Positions 1-43,561 of a stretch of DNA of 44,895 bases are shown one piece after another. The stretch is taken from IMG/VR virus record IMGVR_UViG_2851982317_000005; one strand, written 5' to 3'. The stretch's first letter is position 1. Every line of letters begins with the position of its first letter. The position numbers and the translations under genes are program-made. The notes below the pieces were generated by a model that searched no databases, was not told the DNA's origin, and saw only the letters and a program-made list of their open reading frames with translations. This DNA comes from a virus (taxonomy: Duplodnaviria > Heunggongvirae > Uroviricota > Caudoviricetes).

Positions 1-1131
1 TCAAATGACCAGTTTTTTCCACTCCTTACCGCGTACATCGTTGTAAATATCGGTCATTTTTTGATTCGAATGACCTAGCAAAATTTTGGTATCAACCCCC
101 TGCTCTCTGAACAATCGCTCTGATAAAGATCTCTGCTCATGGAAAGAGGGTGGGGTGCCATTAGCACGCCAGTTGTAATCCACAGAATCCCGGGCTTTTT
201 TAAATGCAACTGTTAATGTTGCTGGCTTAACCATCCCGCCGCGCTTAGCTGTCCCTTTCGCGTGATGGTGGTGCAATAGCCACGGACTAAGAACACAATC
301 GCGGCAGGATGACACTACATCATCCAGGGTGAGATTTAATTTATCGCAACGCAGAGCCAGAGGGATGGCAATCCGGGTTCCTGTTTTTTGCTGTTCGACA
401 TGAAGATAACCATCCCGGATATCCGAAAATTGCATTTTGCAAATATCTGAAAGGCGCTGGCCTGTCATCAGTGCCAGCAGCATACCGCGCTGTAAAAAGT
501 AACCATCCTTTTCCGCTGCGTTATAAATCATCATCCACTCATCAAAAGTCAGTCGCTGTCTTGATATCCGCACCTGCGGTTTTTTTGCCGATTCTGCAGG
601 GTTAAAGCCTGGCGGGACATCGCCCGTTTGCTGAGCTTCCCGGAAAACATCGATCAGTACCTTCCTGAAAATTTGTCCCATTCTGTTATGTCCTCTGGCC
701 TTGTACTCTTCCAGTACTGATACCACATCTTTTACGGTTATGGCATCTAACGGTCTGGTGCCAAAACGTTCATCAAATACCCTGAGAGGGGCCGCTTTCT
801 GTTTCAGCGTGTTGAGTTTGATCTCGCCGTTTTCATATCTTTCCTGTTGAATTTTTCTGTAATTATTCAGAAAAATGGTAACGGTTGATGAACCGCCGGT
901 ATCACTAATAATTTTCTCCTGCAGACTGAGCATTTGTTCCATTTGCTGCCGGGCAAGACGGCTGTTCGCTTCTGCTGCAATAGTTTCTGCCAGTTTCTGG
1001 TCAATACTGCCGAGACCGTGATTTTTGCCTGTTATGGGATGCCTGTAACGCCAGTAAACTTTGTTATTTCTTTTGTCAAAATACGGAGATAATCCCGGAA
1101 CATTGGTTTTATATTTTCGCGGGCGCGCCAT
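1..1131 (-). CDS. int: Tyrosine recombinase / phage integrase (lambda family), complete
   Basis: 376-aa ORF with typical lambda-family integrase N-terminus (MARPRKYKT...YWRYRHPITGK) and C-terminal catalytic region; stop codon sits at window positions 1-3; followed upstream by xis-like gene. Confidence 0.9.
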   Translation of the reverse strand: MARPRKYKTNVPGLSPYFDKRNNKVYWRYRHPITGKNHGLGSIDQKLAETIAAEANSRLARQQMEQMLSLQEKIISDTGGSSTVTIFLNNYRKIQQERYENGEIKLNTLKQKAAPLRVFDERFGTRPLDAITVKDVVSVLEEYKARGHNRMGQIFRKVLIDVFREAQQTGDVPPGFNPAESAKKPQVRISRQRLTFDEWMMIYNAAEKDGYFLQRGMLLALMTGQRLSDICKMQFSDIRDGYLHVEQQKTGTRIAIPLALRCDKLNLTLDDVVSSCRDCVLSPWLLHHHHAKGTAKRGGMVKPATLTVAFKKARDSVDYNWRANGTPPSFHEQRSLSERLFREQGVDTKILLGHSNQKMTDIYNDVRGKEWKKLVI

Positions 1132-1357
1132 CTTCCAGTATCCTCTTCAAAGCAGGGTGATCTGTGGCGATCACCTCCGGCTTGTTTACCATTCCGACAA
1201 AGCGAGCTTGCGGATCCACTCGCCAGCGTCTTCCAACTTTTTTGGGGAGAGGAAATATCATTCCGGCTTTAGCGTATTTACTTAACGTACTCGGAGTTGG
1301 GACCGGTTCACTGAATTCCTCTTTTGCCCACTCAGTGAGCAGAATAAGTCTTGCCAT
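1109..1357 (-). CDS. xis: Excisionase-like small DNA-binding protein
   Basis: 82-aa basic ORF immediately upstream of and overlapping int start, the position of excisionase in lambdoid phages; true start may be internal. Confidence 0.6.
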   Translation of the reverse strand: MARLILLTEWAKEEFSEPVPTPSTLSKYAKAGMIFPLPKKVGRRWRVDPQARFVGMVNKPEVIATDHPALKRILEDGAPAKI

Positions 1358-1421: not shown

Positions 1422-3893
1422 TTAAAAATCAGCCTGATTCGGGATCAGTTTTTGCCAGATAACTGAAACGTATTTTGCCTGGTAACGGGCGTCATCAAGT
1501 GCATTATGGCGCTCACCTTCGAATGGAATAGCCGTTCTGGCATCGAAGTCTATGGCTTTCCCCAGCTCAACGATTGTGCGTACATCGCGATCGTTGTAGT
1601 AACGCCACGGGCAGGGGATCCCCTGCCGTTCGTATGAACGGCGCAAAATCGTGTTGTCGAAGTTGGCTCCATTTCCCCAGACCTGAACAAAAAATTCACC
1701 GGAGTTTTCGTCGATAAATTCCCGCAATTGTAACAGTGCATCATCTAACGGGATTTCATCGGTCATAATGGCAGACTGCGCTTCACGTGATTGCTTCAGC
1801 CACCTTTTAATGACGTCACGATCAATGACTCCGCCAGCAGTTTCCAGATCGATAGTCTTACTAAATTCCGGTCCCATATCTCCGGTTTGCGGATCGAAAA
1901 ATATTGCACCTATTGAGATAATCGGAGCATCAGGATTTTTTCCCATGGTTTCAAGGTCGATCATTAGATGGTCACACGTCCTGCTGGTGGATGTGATAAC
2001 GTGATGACCGTTCATCGTAATTAAGGGATCTGCCGTCTCGCCAGTTTCACTATCGCTGGCGTGATCCTGAGCGCTACCAGCATTCTCCTTGTGTGGATGT
2101 TCAGCGCCTTCCATTTCCTTCGGATCATTTTCCTGAACTTCAACCTGATTCTCTTCATCGAATGTTTCCTGGTATGTTGCGTCACCCATCACCGCGCCAC
2201 AATCAGGGCAGTTGCCGCCACCGCTTTGACCGCAGGCGGTGCAGACTTTTTCCGGTTCCTGTTGCGCTACTGGCTCAGGTTGTTTCGTTTCTGGCTCGTT
2301 TTGTTGCGTATTTGGGCTGTTTTGTTCCGCTTTCTGGTCGTTCTGTTCCGATTCTTGCTGGTTCTGGTTTACAGAATCGCGGGTTTCAATCCCCTTTACC
2401 CATTTCGGATCATTCGGGTCGCTAATCCCTGCAACAAATTCTCCGCGAGAGGCAGCAAGCAACTTATCGGCGTCAGGCTGGCTGATATTGGCTGCCTGCA
2501 TAATTTTGTTTACTTCGTCAGCGGTAACTTTTACCGGCTCTGGTTGTGCGGTCGTGTCAGATGCACCAGTATTTTGTTGTGAACCTGAGTACGTGCCGTT
2601 TTTACGTGCGAAGTATTCCTCTTTTGTGATTTCCGTAGCTCCCAAGGCTAGTGCTTTTTCCAGACCAGAAAGTTTGTTTGCGCGACCGTATTTTTCGCCA
2701 TCCTTGTCGGTGAAGAGGAAGTAGAACGGCCCTTCACGCTCTACAGATGGTTCGACTTCCACTTTGCATTCGGTTTTTTCGTTGTCCGGAATTGCCGTTT
2801 CCACTGCATCAGTTTCTGGTACTGGCGACGAGAGAGTATCAGTTGCGCTCTGATTTCTTCCTTCATCTTCAAACACGCCCTTTGTAGTCAGGTATTCAGT
2901 AATGTATTTGTTCAGTGCCACAGGGTCTTTGTGAATGTCGATCGGACGTTCACGGACAAGGCCAAAAATAGTCTGGCGGTCGTAGCGAAGGGCATCAGGC
3001 TGTTTGCGCATTGATGCCGAGATACGCTTCCAGTCTTCGCGATCGTTGTCGATAACTTCATTTTTTGCCCAGCGATGGATGCTGCCGTCAATGTTTCCGG
3101 CATCCACATCACCAGGCCAGAGAGCGTAGGCCAGTTCGTCATCCAGTGTTTTCCATGTCTGCTTGTATTCGCGATGAGTGGCAGCAATGACCGGGCTGAT
3201 TTTTCCTGTTGAATTTTCAGTGTTCTGTTGATTGGCTCTGGCGCGGGCGAGATCAACAACAGACGTGTATTTTCCGGTTTCCTTGCGTTCACCTTCGCGA
3301 CGTTTTTTCCAGATGCGCATCTCTGCCTGAATTTCGGGCCATTTGGCACCAGGCTTACATTTATGCTTAACCCACCCGATGGCATGCAGCTTAAGCTCCG
3401 GATACATGGCGTTAACTTCTGACATTTTCATCAACGCTTCAACGATATGTCCGTCGAATGTTGCCATGTCTTCCTGCAACAATTCCTGCGCGCTAATCAC
3501 CATATCAACGGTGATGTTTTCACATGTGTCGAACTTAACCATGACAGCGTTCTGTACTTCAGGGGCTAGGTTGTCAAAAGTGACGTTCATCGGATCGGAT
3601 TCAGTCTCGACCGGGACAAAGGAAGCAGACGCCTCATCCCAGCGGTTTTCCTGCATATATTCAGCATCCCAGGAATCGAGGGCAGGGCGGGGTATACCGG
3701 GTTTATCCTCGCAAACAAGAAATTTATAAGCGCAGTCCTGAACAGCCGGATAATGTTCCAGGAATTGCCAGTGAAATTTTGCGCGGGCGCGACGTTCATC
3801 ACCGGCTTCAATGGCAGTGGCTACAGCGACGGCACCTTCTTCCTTTATTGCCTGTTCGTCCGGAATGGCGGCGCAAATAAAGACTTTACTCAT
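1422..3893 (-). CDS. Large early-left protein with C-terminal DnaQ-like (DEDDh) 3'-5' exonuclease domain and CxxC...CxxC zinc ribbon; YdfE-like, often annotated exodeoxyribonuclease VIII-like
   Basis: 823-aa ORF; C-terminal region shows Exo I-like motif (IDLETMG) and Exo III-like motif (HNALDDARY); zinc ribbon CTACGQSGGGNCPDCG; Q/E/N/P-rich low-complexity linker; position downstream of dicB/ydfD as in Qin prophage. Confidence 0.7.
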   Translation of the reverse strand: MSKVFICAAIPDEQAIKEEGAVAVATAIEAGDERRARAKFHWQFLEHYPAVQDCAYKFLVCEDKPGIPRPALDSWDAEYMQENRWDEASASFVPVETESDPMNVTFDNLAPEVQNAVMVKFDTCENITVDMVISAQELLQEDMATFDGHIVEALMKMSEVNAMYPELKLHAIGWVKHKCKPGAKWPEIQAEMRIWKKRREGERKETGKYTSVVDLARARANQQNTENSTGKISPVIAATHREYKQTWKTLDDELAYALWPGDVDAGNIDGSIHRWAKNEVIDNDREDWKRISASMRKQPDALRYDRQTIFGLVRERPIDIHKDPVALNKYITEYLTTKGVFEDEGRNQSATDTLSSPVPETDAVETAIPDNEKTECKVEVEPSVEREGPFYFLFTDKDGEKYGRANKLSGLEKALALGATEITKEEYFARKNGTYSGSQQNTGASDTTAQPEPVKVTADEVNKIMQAANISQPDADKLLAASRGEFVAGISDPNDPKWVKGIETRDSVNQNQQESEQNDQKAEQNSPNTQQNEPETKQPEPVAQQEPEKVCTACGQSGGGNCPDCGAVMGDATYQETFDEENQVEVQENDPKEMEGAEHPHKENAGSAQDHASDSETGETADPLITMNGHHVITSTSRTCDHLMIDLETMGKNPDAPIISIGAIFFDPQTGDMGPEFSKTIDLETAGGVIDRDVIKRWLKQSREAQSAIMTDEIPLDDALLQLREFIDENSGEFFVQVWGNGANFDNTILRRSYERQGIPCPWRYYNDRDVRTIVELGKAIDFDARTAIPFEGERHNALDDARYQAKYVSVIWQKLIPNQADF

Positions 3894-3985
3894 TTTGTTT
3901 TACCTCATTACAGATTTAAGGGTGAACAAATCCCTGCCATTGCTGGCATATAAGAATGAAATCGGATGTTTATTACGGAACTGTT

Positions 3986-4177
3986 TTAAAGACCTGCCGG
4001 GATTTCGTTATTATCCTGGTGAATAACTTTATCGACCGGGTAACAGTTACCGGGAATTTTCTGTTCGGTTGCTGCAGTCACACACTCCTGCATTGTCCTG
4101 TGAACACTGACTGCAATATCAACTGGCTCTCCGGAAACAAGAAAAACTGTCAGAACAAGTGCAAATGCTGTATTCAT
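3986..4177 (-). CDS. ydfD: YdfD-like small lysis/membrane protein (Qin family)
   Basis: 63-aa product MNTAFALVLTVFLVSGEPVDIAVSVHRTMQEC... with N-terminal hydrophobic segment; recalled similarity to Qin YdfD; start directly follows the dicB stop. Confidence 0.6.
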   Translation of the reverse strand: MNTAFALVLTVFLVSGEPVDIAVSVHRTMQECVTAATEQKIPGNCYPVDKVIHQDNNEIPAGL

Positions 4178-4362
4178 TGCCAGCATCCTTTTTGTATCGG
4201 ACGTAAACGGGCCAACATTGAAAGAATGCATATTTTATTTAATAGCTTCCGTTCGTGTTTTCTCTTGTTAATGGCATCTTCAGTAAATACAGGGTTACTG
4301 ATAGTGACACCAATTTCAAAACAACCTTCAGACGTATTAACGTTTGGTAATAACGTTTCCAT
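4174..4362 (-). CDS. dicB: Cell division inhibitor DicB
   Basis: 62-aa product METLLPNVNTSEGCFEIGVTISNPVFTEDAINKRK... matches recalled DicB sequence; located just downstream of DicF as in the Qin dicB operon. Confidence 0.75.
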   Translation of the reverse strand: METLLPNVNTSEGCFEIGVTISNPVFTEDAINKRKHERKLLNKICILSMLARLRPIQKGCWQ

Positions 4363-4531: not shown

Positions 4532-4589
4532 AAAAAGGGCGGCAGAGCAGTCACGGAGTAAAACTGATACCGCCAAACGTCACCAGAAA
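4532..4589 (-). ncRNA. dicF: DicF small regulatory RNA (ftsZ-targeting sRNA of the dicB operon)
   Basis: Minus-strand sequence TTTCTGGTGACGTTTGGCGGTATCAGTTTTACTCCGTGACTGCTCTGCCGCCCTTTTT matches recalled DicF including 3' stem and U-run; sits between ydfC and dicB. Confidence 0.7.
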
Positions 4590-6973: not shown

Positions 6974-8050
6974 GTGAGTATGGCTAACGCCTGGCTCAGA
7001 TTATGGCATGACATGCCAAATGACCCTAAGTGGCGAACAATTGCCAGGGTGTCAGGGCAGCCAATTGCAACAGTGATGGCAGTGTATATCCACCTCCTGG
7101 TGAGCGCGTCACGAAATGTCACGCGAGGTCACATTGAGGTCACGACAGAAGATTTGGCAAGTGCGCTCGACGTGACAGAAGAGGTAATTGATTCAATTTT
7201 GCAGACGATGCAGGGGCGGGTACTTGATGGTGATTTAATCACTGGATGGGAAAAACGCCAGGTGCTTAAAGAGGACAACGGCAATATTTCGCAAACCGCA
7301 AAATCTCCTGCAGAGCGCAAGAGGGCGCAGCGAGAGAGGGAAAGAAAGCGGGAACAAAATGGCGATTGTCACGGCGCGTCACGAAATGTCACGCATATGT
7401 CACGACGAGTCACGACAGATAAAGATACAGATAAAGATACAGATCAAGAAGATCAAAACACTATGGTCCATGGCGTAAAAAACGCCACGAACCAGGCAGG
7501 GGATGTTCAGACCGTCAATCTTGGTCAGCCAGCAGGCACGACACCGGAAGCCGATTCAGCGTATGCGCTGAAAGCCGATTCGGGCGCTGTGCAGCAGGTG
7601 ATGACCGCAAGGCCGGAGCAATCACACCAACTGCAGCAGCCCGAAGCCGATTCCGCCATTCAGCGGGAAGCCGATCGGGTAGTCCCGGAAAACACCGGGC
7701 AGTCTGTGGGACGAGTGGATTATCCGGATGTGTTCGAACAGGTCTGGCGGGAGTACCCGTTGCGTGCCGGAGCAAACCCGAAGAAATCCGCTTTCAGTGC
7801 CTGGAAGGCCAGATTACGCGAGGGGGTGCCACCAGAGGCCATGCTGGATGGCGTGAGGCGTTACGCAAGATACTTGGCGGCTACCGGGAAAACGGGAACG
7901 GAATTTGTTCAGCGAGCGACGACGTTTTTTGGACCGGACCGGAATTTTGAGAACCCCTGGTTGCTCCCGGTAAGCGGCACGAACAACCAGCGTTGTGTGA
8001 ATCATATTTCTGAACCGGATAACGAAATTCCGCCGGGCTTCAGGGGGTAA
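6974..8050 (+). CDS. Replication initiator / replisome organizer (YdaU/O-like) containing internal iteron arrays
   Basis: 358-aa ORF; two clusters of GTCAC(G) repeats inside the coding sequence; C-terminal region typical of phage replication proteins. Confidence 0.55.
   Translation: MSMANAWLRLWHDMPNDPKWRTIARVSGQPIATVMAVYIHLLVSASRNVTRGHIEVTTEDLASALDVTEEVIDSILQTMQGRVLDGDLITGWEKRQVLKEDNGNISQTAKSPAERKRAQRERERKREQNGDCHGASRNVTHMSRRVTTDKDTDKDTDQEDQNTMVHGVKNATNQAGDVQTVNLGQPAGTTPEADSAYALKADSGAVQQVMTARPEQSHQLQQPEADSAIQREADRVVPENTGQSVGRVDYPDVFEQVWREYPLRAGANPKKSAFSAWKARLREGVPPEAMLDGVRRYARYLAATGKTGTEFVQRATTFFGPDRNFENPWLLPVSGTNNQRCVNHISEPDNEIPPGFRG
7106..7150. repeat. Iteron cluster 1 (four GTCAC motifs at about 10-11 bp spacing)
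   Basis: gcgtcacgaaatgtcacgcgaggtcacattgaggtcacgacag read directly. Confidence 0.6.
7365..7445. repeat. Iteron cluster 2 (five GTCACG motifs) plus AT-rich tandem repeat; candidate origin of replication
   Basis: ttgtcacggcgcgtcacgaaatgtcacgcatatgtcacgacgagtcacgacag followed by ataaagatacag x2; the 19-mer gcgtcacgaaatgtcacgc is shared with cluster 1. Confidence 0.6.
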
Positions 8051-9656: not shown

Positions 9657-9867
9657 ATTAATGGGTTAACTATGTCGGTTAAACGACCAGCCAACTGAAA
9701 AAGCGGAAACCTGATTATAGGTTGCCAGATAAGGCAATAAGCTACCTGGCGCGGAACGGACTGATAAGTATGGGGAGTGTTTTACGATGAACCTTTAGAC
9801 TAAAGAGTTTGTAAGTAACCGGCTCATTTAAACCGTCTGGTCTGTTTCCTCCGGCTCTACAAAAATA

Positions 9868-10545
9868 ATGTCCATCATTTTTAATGGACACTATCGTATG
9901 AAACACCGGACCTGGATCACTGAAGCTTTACGTCTTCACTTTGAAGAACATTTACCCCGGGTTGTGGCCGGGCGTCGCCTGGGTGTACCAAAATCAACAG
10001 TTTGTAGTATGTTCGTGCGCTTTCGGAGAGCTGGCCTTTCGTGGCCTTTGCCCGCAGGCATGTCGGAGCAGGAACTTGATGCCTGCCTTTACGGACAATT
10101 TTCCACGGTACCAGTCGTACGTCCTGAAAGCACCGTTATATCCGAAGCCCCCGTGGTAAAAAAACGTCCCCGGCGGCCCAACTTCCCTTATGAGTTTAAA
10201 ATCGCCTTAGTGGAGCAGTCACTGCAGCCCGGAGCCTGTGTGGCGCAGATCGCCCGGGAAAACGGAATCAACGATAACCTGCTCTTCAACTGGCGCCATC
10301 AATACCGGAAAGGTGGCCTGCTGCCTTCCGGAAAAAATATGCCGGCACTGCTTCCCGTGACGTTAACGCCGGAGCCGGATAATAAAATCCCGGCCCCCGC
10401 ACAGGAACCAGAGCAGATAAATACACCGTCCGACAGTCTGTGTTGTGAGCTGGTTCTGCCGGCCGGAACTCTCAGGCTTAAAGGTAAACTGACGCCGGCG
10501 TTATTACAGACACTTATCCGCGAAATAAAAGGGAGCAGCCACTGA
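9868..10545 (+). CDS. tnpA: IS66-family accessory protein TnpA (orfA)
   Basis: Contains the conserved YEFKIALVEQSLQPGACVAQIARENGINDNLLFNWRHQY HTH region; ORF start may be N-terminally extended. Confidence 0.75.
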   Translation: MSIIFNGHYRMKHRTWITEALRLHFEEHLPRVVAGRRLGVPKSTVCSMFVRFRRAGLSWPLPAGMSEQELDACLYGQFSTVPVVRPESTVISEAPVVKKRPRRPNFPYEFKIALVEQSLQPGACVAQIARENGINDNLLFNWRHQYRKGGLLPSGKNMPALLPVTLTPEPDNKIPAPAQEPEQINTPSDSLCCELVLPAGTLRLKGKLTPALLQTLIREIKGSSH

Positions 10546-10892
10546 TGATATCTCTCCCTGCAGGTTCGCGTATCTGGCTGGTTGCAGGTATCACCGATAT
10601 GCGAAATGGCTTTAACGGCCTGGCATCAAAAGTTCAGAACGTCCTGAAGGATGACCCGTTCTCCGGACACCTGTTCATCTTCCGCGGACGCCGGGGTGAC
10701 CAGATAAAAGTGTTGTGGGCTGACAGTGACGGACTGTGCCTCTTCACCAAACGCCTGGAGCGGGGCCGCTTCGTCTGGCCAGTCACCCGTGACGGCAAGG
10801 TGCACCTTACTCCGGCTCAGTTATCCATGCTTCTTGAAGGTATCAACTGGAAGCACCCGAAACGAACGGAACGCGCTGGAATCCGCATATAA
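10545..10892 (+). CDS. tnpB: IS66-family TnpB (orfB)
   Basis: 115-aa ORF MISLPAGSRIWLVAGITDMRNGFNGL... typical IS66 Orf2; overlaps orfA stop. Confidence 0.85.
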   Translation: MISLPAGSRIWLVAGITDMRNGFNGLASKVQNVLKDDPFSGHLFIFRGRRGDQIKVLWADSDGLCLFTKRLERGRFVWPVTRDGKVHLTPAQLSMLLEGINWKHPKRTERAGIRI

Positions 10893-10911
10893 CCCGTTGT
10901 AAAGTGAGGAT

Positions 10912-12483
10912 ATGGACACCTCACTTGCTCATGAGAACGCCCGCCTGCGGGCACTGTTGCAGACGCAACAGGACACCATACGCCAGATGGCTGAATACAA
11001 CCGCCTGCTCTCACAGCGGGTGGCGGCTTATGCTTCTGAAATCAACCGGCTGAAGGCGCTGGTTGCGAAACTGCAGCGTATGCAGTTCGGTAAAAGCTCA
11101 GAAAAACTTCGTGCAAAAACCGAACGGCAGATACAGGAAGCACAGGAGCGAATCAGCGCACTTCAGGAAGAAATGGCGGAAACGCTGGGTGAGCAATATG
11201 ACCCGGTACTGCCATCCGCCCTGCGCCAGTCTTCAGCCCGTAAACCGTTACCGGCCTCACTTCCCCGTGAAACCCGGGTTATCCGGCCGGAAGAGGAATG
11301 CTGTCCTGCCTGTGGTGGTGAACTCAGTTCTCTGGGATGTGATGTGTCAGAGCAACTGGAGCTTATCAGCAGCGCCTTTAAGGTTATTGAAACACAACGT
11401 CCGAAACAGGCCTGTTGCCGGTGCGACCATATCGTGCAGGCACCAGTACCTTCAAAACCCATTGCACGCAGTTATGCCGGAGCGGGGCTTCTGGCCCATG
11501 TTGTCACCGGGAAATATGCAGACCATCTGCCGTTATACCGCCAGTCAGAAATATACCGTCGTCAGGGAGTGGAGCTGAGCCGTGCCACACTGGGGCGCTG
11601 GACAGGTGCTGTTGCTGAACTGCTGGAGCCGCTGTATGACGTCCTGCGCCAGTATGTGCTGATGCCCGGTAAAGTCCATGCTGATGATATCCCCGTCCCG
11701 GTCCAGGAGCCGGGCAGCGGTAAAACCCGGACAGCCCGGCTGTGGGTCTACGTCCGTGATGACCGTAACGCCGGTTCACAGATGCCCCCGGCGGTCTGGT
11801 TCGCGTACAGTCCGGACCGGAAAGGTATCCATCCACAAAATCACCTGGCCGGTTACAGCGGTGTGCTTCAGGCCGATGCTTACGGTGGTTACCGGGCGTT
11901 ATACGAATCCGGCAGAATAACGGAAGCCGCGTGTATGGCTCATGCCCGGAGAAAAATCCACGATGTGCATGCAAGAGCGCCCACCTACATCACCACGGAA
12001 GCCCTGCAGCGTATCGGTGAACTGTATGCCATCGAGGCAGAGGTCCGGGGCTGTTCAGCAGAACAGCGTCTGGCGGCAAGAAAAGCCAGAGCCGCGCCAC
12101 TGATGCAGTCACTGTATGACTGGATACAGCAACAGATGAAAACACTGTCGCGTCACTCAGATACGGCAAAAGCGTTCGCATACCTGCTGAAACAGTGGGA
12201 TGCACTGAACGTGTACTGCAGTAATGGCTGGGTGGAAATCGACAACAACATCGCAGAGAACGCCTTACGGGGAGTGGCCGTAGGCCGGAAAAACTGGATG
12301 TTCGCGGGTTCCGACAGCGGTGGTGAACATGCGGCGGTGTTGTACTCGCTGATCGGCACATGCCGTCTGAACAATGTGGAGCCAGAAAAGTGGCTGCGTT
12401 ACGTCATTGAACATATCCAGGACTGGCCGGCAAACCGGGTACGCGATCTGTTGCCCTGGAAAGTTGATCTGAGCTCTCAGTAA
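10912..12483 (+). CDS. tnpC: IS66-family transposase (orfC)
   Basis: 523-aa ORF with N-terminal coiled-coil/leucine zipper, CxxC zinc-finger region and DDE-type core typical of IS66 transposases. Confidence 0.85.
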
Positions 12484-12617
12484 ATATCAATACGGTTCTG
12501 ACGAGTCGCTTACGTTTGTAACGCTATGTAAGTGATTTTTTCTAGTTTAGATATTTATATGTCCGGCCAAATTGAGGTGTGTTTAAATGTAATTGCACAT
12601 TGATTGTAGGAGGAATA

Positions 12618-12797: not shown

Positions 12798-12998
12798 ATA
12801 CAGCGAACTCCATTGGTTTAGTTGGATATTTATTGTGCTGGACAAAAACGGTTTGCGGGGAAATCTTAGTTAAGTAGAATGACTGCGGGTGCTTGAGGCT
12901 ATCTGCCTCGGGCATGAACACCAACGGCAGATAGAGAAAAGCCCCAGGTAACATTACGCGTCCTGCAAGACGTTTAACATTAATCTGAGGCCATATCT

Positions 12999-13058
12999 AT
13001 GCGACACATAGAGATTAGCCTCTTACGGACCGAAAGGTCAAGGAGAAGCAGGCTATGA
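12999..13058 (+). CDS. mok: mok-like leader ORF translationally coupled to hok
   Basis: 19-codon ORF whose TGA stop overlaps the hok ATG (ATGA); inverted repeats in the leader. Confidence 0.35.
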   Translation: MRHIEISLLRTERSRRSRL

Positions 13059-16345: not shown

Positions 16346-16421
16346 GGCCCTTTAGCTCAGTGGTGAGAGCGAGCGACTCATAATCGCCAGGTCGCTGGTT
16401 CAAATCCAGCAAGGGCCACCA
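16346..16421 (+). tRNA. ileZ: tRNA with CAU anticodon, ileX/ileZ-like (tRNA-Ile2)
   Basis: Manual cloverleaf: acceptor GGCCCTT/AAGGGCC, anticodon loop CTCATAA, T-loop TTCAAAT, encoded CCA; closely resembles recalled E. coli ileX. Confidence 0.75.
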
Positions 16422-16521: not shown

Positions 16522-16595
16522 GCGTTGTTAGCTCAGCCGGACAGAGCAATTGCCTTCTAAGCAATCGGTCACTGGTTCGAATCCAGTACAGCGCG
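16522..16595 (+). tRNA. argO: tRNA-Arg (UCU anticodon)
   Basis: Manual cloverleaf: acceptor GCGTTGT/ACAGCGC (one G-U), anticodon stem ATTGC/GCAAT, loop CTTCTAA, T-loop TTCGAAT. Confidence 0.75.
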
Positions 16596-17229: not shown

Positions 17230-17454
17230 CCGGGTATCAGTTAGCGGGAGAAATTTTTAAATACTTCACAATTCAGGCGGTTGACTGTTGTCTGGTTTGC
17301 GGGGAGTTTGTTAAAAGAAACTGGCATGGTGAATCCCCCTGTGCGGAGGGGCAATCAGCGAGTAGGTATATGGGATAATCGCGGATTCAGGTGCTGGTAC
17401 TGAATTCACCGGGAGGCACCCGGCACCATGCAATGGCACATAGCGCCACTCTCC

Positions 17455-17490
17455 AGCCCCTCTCCGGAGGGGCTGTTTATATTGATTTTG
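17455..17490 (+). terminator. Hairpin terminator between convergent moron genes
   Basis: agcccctctccggaggggct followed by gtttatattgatttt. Confidence 0.45.
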
Positions 17491-42977: not shown

Positions 42978-43561
42978 TGGCATTCAGAATGAGTGAACAA
43001 GCACGGACCATAAAAATTTATAATCTGCTGGCCGGAACTAATGAATTTATTGGTGAAGGTGACGCATATATTCCGCCTCATACAGGTCTGCCAGCAAACA
43101 GTACCGATATTGCACCGCCAGATATTCCGGCTGGCTTTGTGGCTGTTTTCAACAGTGATGAGGCATCGTGGCATCTCGTTGAAGACCATCGGGGTAAAAC
43201 GGTTTATGACGTAGCGTCAGGGGACGAGTTATTTATTTCTGAACTCGGTCCGTTACCGGAAAATGTTACCTGGTTATCGCCGGAAGGGGAGTTTCAGAAG
43301 TGGAACGGCACAGCCTGGGTGAAGGATACGGAAGCAGAAAAACTGTTCCGGATCCGGGAGGCGGAAGAAACAAAAAACAACCTGATGCAGGTAGCCAGTG
43401 AGCATATTGCGCCGCTTCAGGATGCTGCAGATCTGGAAATTGCAACGGAGGAAGAAACCTCATTGCTGGAAGCCTGGAAAAAGTATCGGGTGTTGCTGAA
43501 CCGTGTTGATACATCAACTGCACCTGATATTGAGTGGCCTACGAACCCTGTCAGGGAGTAA
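42977..43561 (+). CDS. tfa: Tail fibre assembly protein (Tfa)
   Basis: 194-aa ORF overlapping the stf stop; typical Tfa N-terminus ([48 protein letters not shown]). Confidence 0.85.

Follow-up and report, generated by a model that had tools for sequence, protein, structure and literature searches.

The window analysed here is the whole 44,895-nucleotide (nt) stretch of Caudoviricetes DNA held in IMG/VR as IMGVR_UViG_2851982317_000005, and the gene of interest within it is the intact coding sequence of a YdfE-family 'exonuclease' of 823 amino acids (aa), which the open reading frame (ORF) list places at 1422..3893 (-), with the stop codon at 1422-1424 and an ATG start. The gene product is predicted to be a nuclease-swap relative of RecE: the homology of aa ~262-626 with residues 278-592 of RecE from the Rac prophage indicates that the protein consists of a common non-catalytic scaffold on which the nuclease has been exchanged. 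This places it much nearer to RecE than a sequence-only reading of the same DNA had held. The architecture and the enzymatic class are assigned with high confidence. The gene is already catalogued (as 'exonuclease' by the NCBI Prokaryotic Genome Annotation Pipeline (PGAP), as PHROG 2082, and under Pfam YdfE_N/YdfE_C and Rv2179c-like), and as an annotation the result is ordinary; what is new here is best filed as a RecE-family scaffold carrying a swapped nuclease of opposite polarity.

The C-terminal region of the protein contains an Rv2179c/DexA-type DEDDh 3'-5' exonuclease domain at aa 642-813 (1455..1970, (-)), which was identified with Pfam, by alignment to T4 DexA, and with an AlphaFold2 model submitted to Foldseek. 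The Pfam family PF16473 (Rv2179c-like) matches these residues with an E-value of 2.8e-63 and 213.3 bits against a cut-off of 27, covering positions 2-177 of the 177-position model. Residues D646 and E648 (Exo I, D-x-E), D746 (Exo II), and H796 and D801 (Exo III, H-x4-D) align to D7, E9, D119, H186 and D191 of T4 DexA. They form an intact two-metal catalytic set and vary little or not at all among 40 homologues. The AlphaFold2 model of aa 627-823 has a predicted local distance difference test score (pLDDT) of 85 and a predicted template modelling score (pTM) of 0.82. Foldseek analysis of this model gave DexA as the best solved match (8KEL, E 2e-10, TM 0.72), with RNase T, DnaQ domains and oligoribonucleases (Orn) coming next, and a search of PDB sequences with the full protein retrieved DexA alone, as a weak hit. 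The DnaQ-like exonuclease motifs noted at the C-terminus in the sequence-only reading are thus borne out by the Pfam match, the five catalytic residues and the DexA-like model. A stand-alone cluster (P0154, 180 aa, 28 member sequences) is 90% identical to aa 644-823 and has Asn in place of the catalytic Asp of Exo II (NFNN vs NFDN), which suggests an inactive or altered variant. An internal start at M644, where the stand-alone homologues begin, was considered for the present gene and rejected, as no Shine-Dalgarno sequence is found upstream of it.

BLASTP analysis against Rac RecE aligned aa 262-626 with RecE 278-592 (E 7e-64, 40% identity overall). Identity reaches about 80% over aa 474-626, a region that includes the segment LLAASRGEFVxGISDPNDPKWVK, a Q-rich linker, a four-cysteine (Cys4) motif and an acidic linker. 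The NCBIfam RecE equivalog (NF007259) likewise aligns aa 237-626 with positions 260-603 of its 877, scoring 283.8 bits against a cut-off of 1269. The homology ends where the crystallised PD-(D/E)XK nuclease domain of RecE starts, and because this end falls at aa 626, equivalent to RecE 592, the C-terminal end of the acidic linker is the predicted domain-swap junction. The Pfam scan of the protein gave no hit to PF12684 (PD-(D/E)XK), which is present in Rac and Gifsy-1 RecE, and none to PF06630 (N-terminal Exonuc_VIII), the head belonging to YdfE_N/YdfE_C. A canonical RecE was rejected as an identification, with an equivalog score far under the cut-off (284 bits vs 1269) and no PD-(D/E)XK domain; the earlier reading had reached the same view.

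The extent of the scaffold family was examined with HMMER, using aa 1-640 against 1.84 billion representative proteins at E <= 0.001. The family is small, with 244 representatives, and its long hits were classified by domain probes and Pfam. Every pairing of a YdfE-type or RecE-type head with a DEDDh or PD-(D/E)XK tail was found. The YdfE-type head with the DEDDh tail is featured in the gene described here and in P0238 and P0239, whereas P0240 joins PF06630 and YdfE_C in its head to the same tail, and P0247, P0310 and P0358 join the YdfE-type head to a PD-(D/E)XK tail. The PF06630 head is followed by a DEDDh tail in an 813-aa protein of phage vB_EcoS-640R1 and in P0243, P0255 and P0363, and by a PD-(D/E)XK tail in Rac RecE, Gifsy-1 STM2632 and others. 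Internal-deletion variants of the family are also observed (P0028, P0119, P0239).

A third tail of ~260 aa, located mostly behind YdfE heads, features the motif KKSLTDAxKKALSxLGFSADVWLGLYD and gives weak hits to the Pfam family Rad52_Rad22 (E 0.004-0.05). A profile of this tail retrieved stand-alone proteins of ~243 aa named 'Rad52/Rad22 family DNA repair protein' in NCBI and UniRef with E-values of ~1e-63, and six of ten such proteins pass the PF04098 gathering threshold; the same profile gave nothing significant against the PDB. Based on these matches, the third tail is identified, transitively, as a single-strand annealing protein of the Rad52 type. A YdfE head and middle are fused to this Rad52/Rad22-family tail in P0254 (L009, L010, 5001-7370), P0244, P0249, P0270, P0278, P0300 and P0301. 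PHROGs 2489 and 7838 label proteins with the Rad52-type tail as 'exonuclease', and these labels are probably wrong, having been carried over from the shared N-terminus. A fourth tail group exhibits no recognisable domain.

AlphaFold2 analysis of aa 1-640, based on a 43-sequence alignment, predicted four confident modules (aa 1-97, 101-225, 245-340 and 385-432) and low-confidence segments at 222-237, 345-384, 438-457, 502-548 and 567-640. The first is an alpha/beta head module (aa 1-97; 3603..3893, (-)) that corresponds to Pfam YdfE_N in close homologues. It is followed by a helical head module (aa 101-225; 3219..3593, (-)), precomputed as Pfam YdfE_C (PF27432) in close homologues, with a pLDDT of ~90 to residue ~205. 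Ratios of nonsynonymous to synonymous substitution rates (dN/dS) were computed against two full-length alleles at 92-95% nucleotide identity, and that of the helical head is 0.12 between diverged alleles. The helical middle module (aa 245-340; 2874..3161, (-)) was assigned by BLASTP to Rac RecE, from 278-336 onward, and to Gifsy-1 STM2632. It is present with all tail types, has a pLDDT of ~90 and exhibits a dN/dS of 0.09. The fourth is a small beta-hairpin/helix module (GPFYF...RANK...) at aa 385-432 (2598..2741, (-)), with a pLDDT of 85-92 and a dN/dS of 0.03-0.05 even though dS reaches 1.0; it is common to the YdfE-headed relatives with PD-(D/E)XK and Rad52 tails.

Beyond these modules lies a conserved short motif, LLAASRGEFVAGISDPNDPKWVK, with the core GISDPxDPKW (aa 478-500; 2394..2462, (-)), recognised by sequence conservation. 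The motif is kept in Rac RecE, in the Gifsy-1 RecE-like protein and in the 813-aa variant, and its nearly invariant core occurs in 26 of the 51 long family members, irrespective of the head and together with each of the three tails. It resembles a short linear motif that a common partner might recognise. The stretch in which it sits is poorly ordered. A disordered linker rich in Q, E, N and P follows at aa 510-545 (2259..2366, (-); AlphaFold2 pLDDT <50), where Tandem Repeats Finder identified degenerate 21-nt repeats at 2260-2366 (scores 54-76, 74-77% matches) that encode six Q-initiated heptads (aa 510-551). A repeat-encoded linker of this composition had been proposed from the letters of the sequence, and the period-21 repeats agree with it, although they end at 2366 and do not extend to ~2400 as had been suggested. 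The next feature is a CxxC-x7-CxxC putative zinc ribbon at aa 551-565 (C551, C554, C562, C565; 2199..2243, (-)), identified by its cysteine positions. The motif, which had also been pointed out before, is real and has the same spacing in Rac RecE, and it is an optional insert carried by 8 of the 51 long family members. Folding of this region into a ribbon is weakly supported: the Pfam DZR match is sub-threshold (E 0.11, 13.1 bits vs cut-off 27.3), and the AlphaFold2 pLDDT is 40-55. The scaffold is joined to the nuclease by an acidic disordered linker (aa 570-640, with 17 D+E and 3 K+R; 1974..2186, (-)), which was defined by its composition and has a pLDDT of 30-40 and a dN/dS of 0.4-0.9.

The N-terminal part of the protein links it to a known gene remnant. 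The ydfE remnant of the K-12 prophage Qin corresponds to nt 1-767 of the gene with 95% nucleotide identity, and the products are 96% identical over 256 residues (aa 1-256). In K-12, the ydfE frame runs into IS2 and a truncated integrase. The present gene is accordingly identified, from sequence comparison, as the intact form of K-12 ydfE, as had been suspected in the sequence-only reading. The two share the dicB-ydfD-ydfE operon, and they differ in that K-12 YdfE represents the first 31% of the gene alone, without the RecE-like middle and the nuclease. The K-12 gene should be read as the first third of a nuclease gene and not as one for a small protein. The PHROG 2082 match spans the whole protein (1-823 of 823), and the protein is 100% identical to WP_074504043.1, labelled 'exonuclease' by PGAP, in NZ_CP024257. 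PF27430 (YdfE_N) and PF27432 (YdfE_C) are precomputed on the first ~230 residues of homologues at 65-97% identity. The N-terminal region had earlier been described as unrecognised. This does not hold as far as the databases are concerned, given the two Pfam entries and the RecE homology from residue ~262; it holds for function, as none is assigned.

The neighbourhood of these genes differs with their tails. In all three loci with a PD-(D/E)XK tail (Rac, Gifsy-1 and L011), recT is the very next gene, and a Rad52-tailed gene is followed by a Sipho_Gp157 homologue. An annealing-protein gene is absent in eight of eight DEDDh-tailed loci (the window, the K-12 remnant, phage 640R1, L012, L013/L014, L015, L016 and L017), where the genes run straight into xis/int. 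The genomic slot, directly before xis-int, is the same as that of recE-recT. A tblastn search of the whole window with RecT, Rad52-like, Gp157 and RecE-nuclease queries gave a best E-value of 0.26, and the best E-value for the RecE nuclease domain was 0.67. PGAP annotates no annealing protein or RecE nuclease in the near-identical NZ_CP024257 prophage. Erf, Red-beta, Sak4 and Gp2.5 were not queried individually, and none of them appears in the PGAP annotation or the Pfam scans. The statement that no RecT-like gene is adjacent and that this is not a classic recET pair is therefore confirmed, the next genes being xis and int.

The window is colinear (99.98%) with a prophage beside ompW in the E. 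coli genome NZ_CP024257, and the surrounding genes were named from their ORFs and the PGAP annotation of that genome. Immediately upstream, in the same operon, is ydfD (DUF1482; 3986..4177, (-)), preceded by dicB (4174..4362, (-)), which encodes a cell-division inhibitor. A full-length DicF small RNA is found at 4537..4588 (-) with a match to Rfam RF00039 of 76.7 bits (gathering score 48). Immediately downstream are the excisionase (1109..1357, (-)) and the integrase (1..1131, (-)). The operon order is ydfABC-dicF-dicB-ydfD-exo, so that the exonuclease gene is the last gene, directly before xis-int. DicF and the intact dicB-ydfD pair mark the prophage, by sequence, as one of the Qin/dicB-type lambdoid group. 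A GAGG Shine-Dalgarno sequence at 3903..3906 (-), 9 nt 5' of the ATG, can be read from the sequence. No promoter-like site was found directly upstream of the exonuclease gene. A weak 5-bp hairpin is present at 3935-3948, between ydfD and the exonuclease gene, and terminator-like sites are not more frequent than in shuffled sequence.

The context described here speaks for a function in recombination or at DNA ends. We put at about even the chances that the protein is a scaffold-delivered 3'-end exonuclease that acts on DNA in lytic growth and replaces RecE-RecT. The dicB operon of K-12 is co-transcribed from a repressor-controlled early promoter. By the same arrangement, the exonuclease would be co-transcribed with dicB from such a promoter and made upon induction or infection, not in the quiescent lysogen. 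The ~626-residue non-catalytic RecE/YdfE scaffold would serve to deliver or tether the nuclease, either at DNA ends or at a common partner recognised by way of GISDPxDPKW, and the C-terminal domain would remove nucleotides from free 3' ends. DNA would be the likelier substrate, given that T4 DexA, a DNA exonuclease, is the nearest relative of solved structure and that the context is of the recombination type. The presence of DNA-end or recombination effectors on the scaffold elsewhere, as a PD-(D/E)XK or Rad52-like tail, was also counted in favour. The protein would then be a single-protein DNA-end processor of opposite polarity, which either cuts back 3' tails or flaps or breaks down linear DNA starting at its 3' ends, with host functions used in place of a phage annealing protein. 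In dicB-type lambdoid prophages, it would occupy the genomic slot of the RecE-RecT module and take over its function. T4 DexA has roles in the scavenging of host DNA and in intron homing (PMC12153337), which offers a precedent both for a DNA substrate and for the involvement of a 3'-5' exonuclease in transactions of the recombination type.

Several points weigh against this proposal. A pro-recombination role is not self-evident for a 3'-5' exonuclease, since the 5' overhangs that it leaves serve neither annealing nor the loading of RecA. The Pfam family takes its name from the exoribonuclease Rv2179c, and the substrate may be RNA. Sharing of the scaffold could be ordinary prophage mosaicism, with dS ranging from 0.03 to 1.0 along the gene. 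Co-transcription of the operon is carried over from what is known of the K-12 dicB operon, and no functional study of this protein was found in the literature.

An RNA substrate would make the protein an exoribonuclease like Rv2179c, trimming RNA 3' ends and in this way, for example, maturing or turning over its own operon transcripts (DicF) or host RNAs. The Pfam family is defined by this M. tuberculosis 3'-5' exoribonuclease, the structural neighbours after DexA are RNase T and the oligoribonucleases, and DicF, which is processed from the dicB operon transcript, lies ~650 nt upstream of the exonuclease gene in the same operon. However, the DNA exonuclease DexA is both the nearest solved structure and the sole hit at the sequence level in the PDB, RNase T also acts on DNA, and the scaffold is otherwise bound to DNA-recombination effectors. 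The K-12 truncation further implies that DicF matures without an intact ydfE, and an exoribonuclease role is considered improbable.

The early operon is shared with the host-directed dicB, dicF and ydfD, which is consistent with another use of the enzyme, as an early-lytic anti-defence or host-takeover nuclease acting on host nucleic acid with a free 3' end. Candidate substrates would be 3' single-stranded DNA tails for RecA/SOS or RecBCD-linked sensing, retron multicopy single-stranded DNA (msDNA), other defence-associated DNA or RNA, or chromosomal fragments for scavenging, and we regard both this role and these substrates as rather unlikely. DexA scavenges host DNA (PMC12153337), the window contains no phage recombination partner, and stand-alone homologues occur in early operons of P2-like and lambdoid phages, the more distant forms (33-55% identity) being found in a P2-like phage of Klebsiella and a lambdoid phage of Yersinia. 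Set against this, the literature searches showed no defence system that is known to be countered by the family, and simple scavenging leaves a scaffold shared with RecE and an annealing protein unexplained.

The gene is widely distributed. In a survey of 5426 complete E. coli genomes, the full gene (>= 80% covered) was found in 3532 and the DEDDh tail alone in 4047 (75%), with up to seven copies per genome. The Rac-type RecE nuclease tail was found in 1730 (32%), less than half as many, which makes the DEDDh form the more frequent RecE-scaffold protein of E. coli. Full-length copies at 90-95% protein identity are present in 17 sequenced phages, including mEp460 (94% identical), and stand-alone nuclease forms of 180-240 aa with 59-90% identity are common in enterobacterial genomes.

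The gene is retained in 65-75% of the complete E. coli genomes, frequently as several copies and frequently within defective prophages. Such retention would also be expected of a gene useful to the host, which here might be a prophage defence or superinfection-exclusion nuclease that destroys competitor nucleic acid, with the scaffold as an auxiliary or specificity domain. Its targets might be modified T-even DNA, as has been claimed for EcD ('HREX'), or genomes of RNA phages, attacked at their 3' ends as was shown for 'TONDO'. The stand-alone E. coli DexA homologue EcD was reported to be protective against T4 (PMC12153337), and DEDDh proteins with auxiliary domains, encoded on prophages and plasmids, block MS2 and Q-beta (PMC13344964). 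The position of the gene argues otherwise, since a gene that closes a repressor-controlled early operon and lacks its own promoter-like site should be silent in the lysogen, and the same scaffold bears recombination effectors. The residues proposed for recognition of 5-hydroxymethylcytosine in DexA are not kept (W152 is replaced by Y766 and D169 by A780), whereas a tetramer residue that is lost in EcD is retained (D90 corresponds to D718). EcD starts with MIDTET and ends with TIPETYD, and no such ends were found among the close stand-alone homologues. The sole match in PADLOC-DB v2 was to a generic CRISPR-associated 'DEDDh' model (E 1.5e-5, 23.7 bits). Neither a defence role nor either of these targets seems probable, with only a small share of the likelihood assigned to them.

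Persistence in defective prophages could alternatively reflect a decaying and functionless mosaic relic of a RecE gene. Frequent truncation or interruption, as seen in the IS2-disrupted K-12 copy, in many partial copies and in the deletion variants P0028, P0119 and P0239, is in line with this. It is contradicted by dN/dS values of 0.19-0.28 for the whole gene and 0.03-0.17 for the folded modules and the nuclease, with relaxed values of 0.4-0.9 in the linkers, which point to purifying selection on the folded modules. The catalytic residues are conserved across homologues, and thousands of genomes, as well as sequenced phages, contain the 823-aa form at full length. A relic is thus very improbable. 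The whole-gene dN/dS and the 3532 genomes with copies covered to at least 80% likewise argue that the ORF is not a chance one. The dS between alleles (L016 and L017 being the comparisons) varies from 0.03 to 1.0 along the gene and shifts near the disordered linkers. This pattern is evidence that prophage alleles have repeatedly recombined at the boundaries of modules, and it indicates allele mosaicism.

Other features of the window lie outside this operon. An IS66-family ISCro1 element (tnpA, tnpB and transposase; GC content 0.55-0.57) is inserted in the early-right region at 9815-12513, and the otherwise 99.98% identical NZ_CP024257 prophage is without it and has an IS21-family ISEc62 close by instead. 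A 358-aa ORF at 6974-8050 (+) follows a YdaT-like gene at the position expected for a replication initiator; it has no Pfam hit and contains the acidic repeat DKDTDKDTD. The sok antitoxin RNA of a hok/sok locus is found at 12887-13057 (+) (Rfam, 100.8 bits), and NZ_CP024257 has hokD at the matching place. Two tRNA genes, at 16346-16418 and 16522-16595 (+), are located near the Q antiterminator region, followed by a match to the STnc100 small RNA (132 bits) at 17295-17484 (+). An IS009 RNA match (225 bits) is present at 43320-43518 (+), near the right end of the window.

RecE-RecT is a workhorse of recombineering, a field in which a review contains no mention of a DnaQ/DEDD-type exonuclease or of fusion proteins. 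Its scaffold, as the present gene shows, is not bound to the nuclease of RecE: it is conserved under selection and has been recombined with three DNA-end effectors. Full-length RecE boosts linear-linear recombination beyond the nuclease domain alone, and its ~600-residue N-terminal part has been described as 'of unknown function' (PMC11611040). The tail-swapped proteins provide a natural experiment on, and a direct handle for, this long-standing question of RecE N-terminal function. They also raise the question of why so many prophages retain, at the recombination slot, a 3'-5' exonuclease without an annealing protein. A wider and more speculative extension of the DNA-end proposal, possible but on balance doubtful, is that the RecE/YdfE N-terminal region is a general delivery platform of enterobacterial lambdoid phages that brings interchangeable DNA-end effectors to one site or host partner, plausibly via GISDPxDPKW. 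In that case, the DEDDh form would be a previously unrecognised one-protein recombination or end-processing system, with a polarity opposite to that of every known phage recombination exonuclease.

Among known systems, T4 DexA (8KEL/8KEN) and the Rv2179c-like family share with the C-terminal 180 residues their fold and five catalytic residues. Identity to DexA is only ~21-24%, and the extra loops of DexA, W152 and D169 are not conserved. DexA, Rv2179c and most PF16473 members are stand-alone proteins of ~180-230 aa, whereas in the present case the domain forms the tail of a protein of 823 aa. EcD/'HREX' and 'TONDO' are also DEDDh 3'-5' exonucleases found in E. coli or on mobile elements (PMC12153337, PMC13344964), and TONDO resembles the present protein in combining a nuclease with an auxiliary domain of unassigned role (PMC13344964). 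EcD differs in being stand-alone and in its primer-derived sequence ends, and the specificity residues proposed for it are not found in the present protein; EcTon (TONDO) is plasmid-borne and <500 aa.

Closer relatives are found among the scaffold proteins themselves. The 813-aa 'exodeoxyribonuclease VIII' of phage vB_EcoS-640R1, together with P0243, P0255 and P0363, shares the middle and the DEDDh tail, with 68% identity over aa 245-823. The phage protein also has the same dicB-ydfD-exo-xis-int context without an annealing gene, and it differs in having a RecE-type PF06630 head in place of the YdfE head. Rac RecE (866 aa) and the Gifsy-1 RecE-like protein (961 aa) are similar in size and occupy the same slot at the end of the early-left operon before xis-int, and Rac RecE has a homologous non-catalytic middle that includes GISDPNDPKW, the Q-rich linker, the Cys4 motif and the acidic linker. 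RecE carries a PF06630 head, is followed by recT and ends in a PD-(D/E)XK 5'-3' nuclease (PF12684), whereas the protein described here carries a YdfE_N/YdfE_C head, has no recT beside it and ends in a DEDDh 3'-5' nuclease (PF16473).

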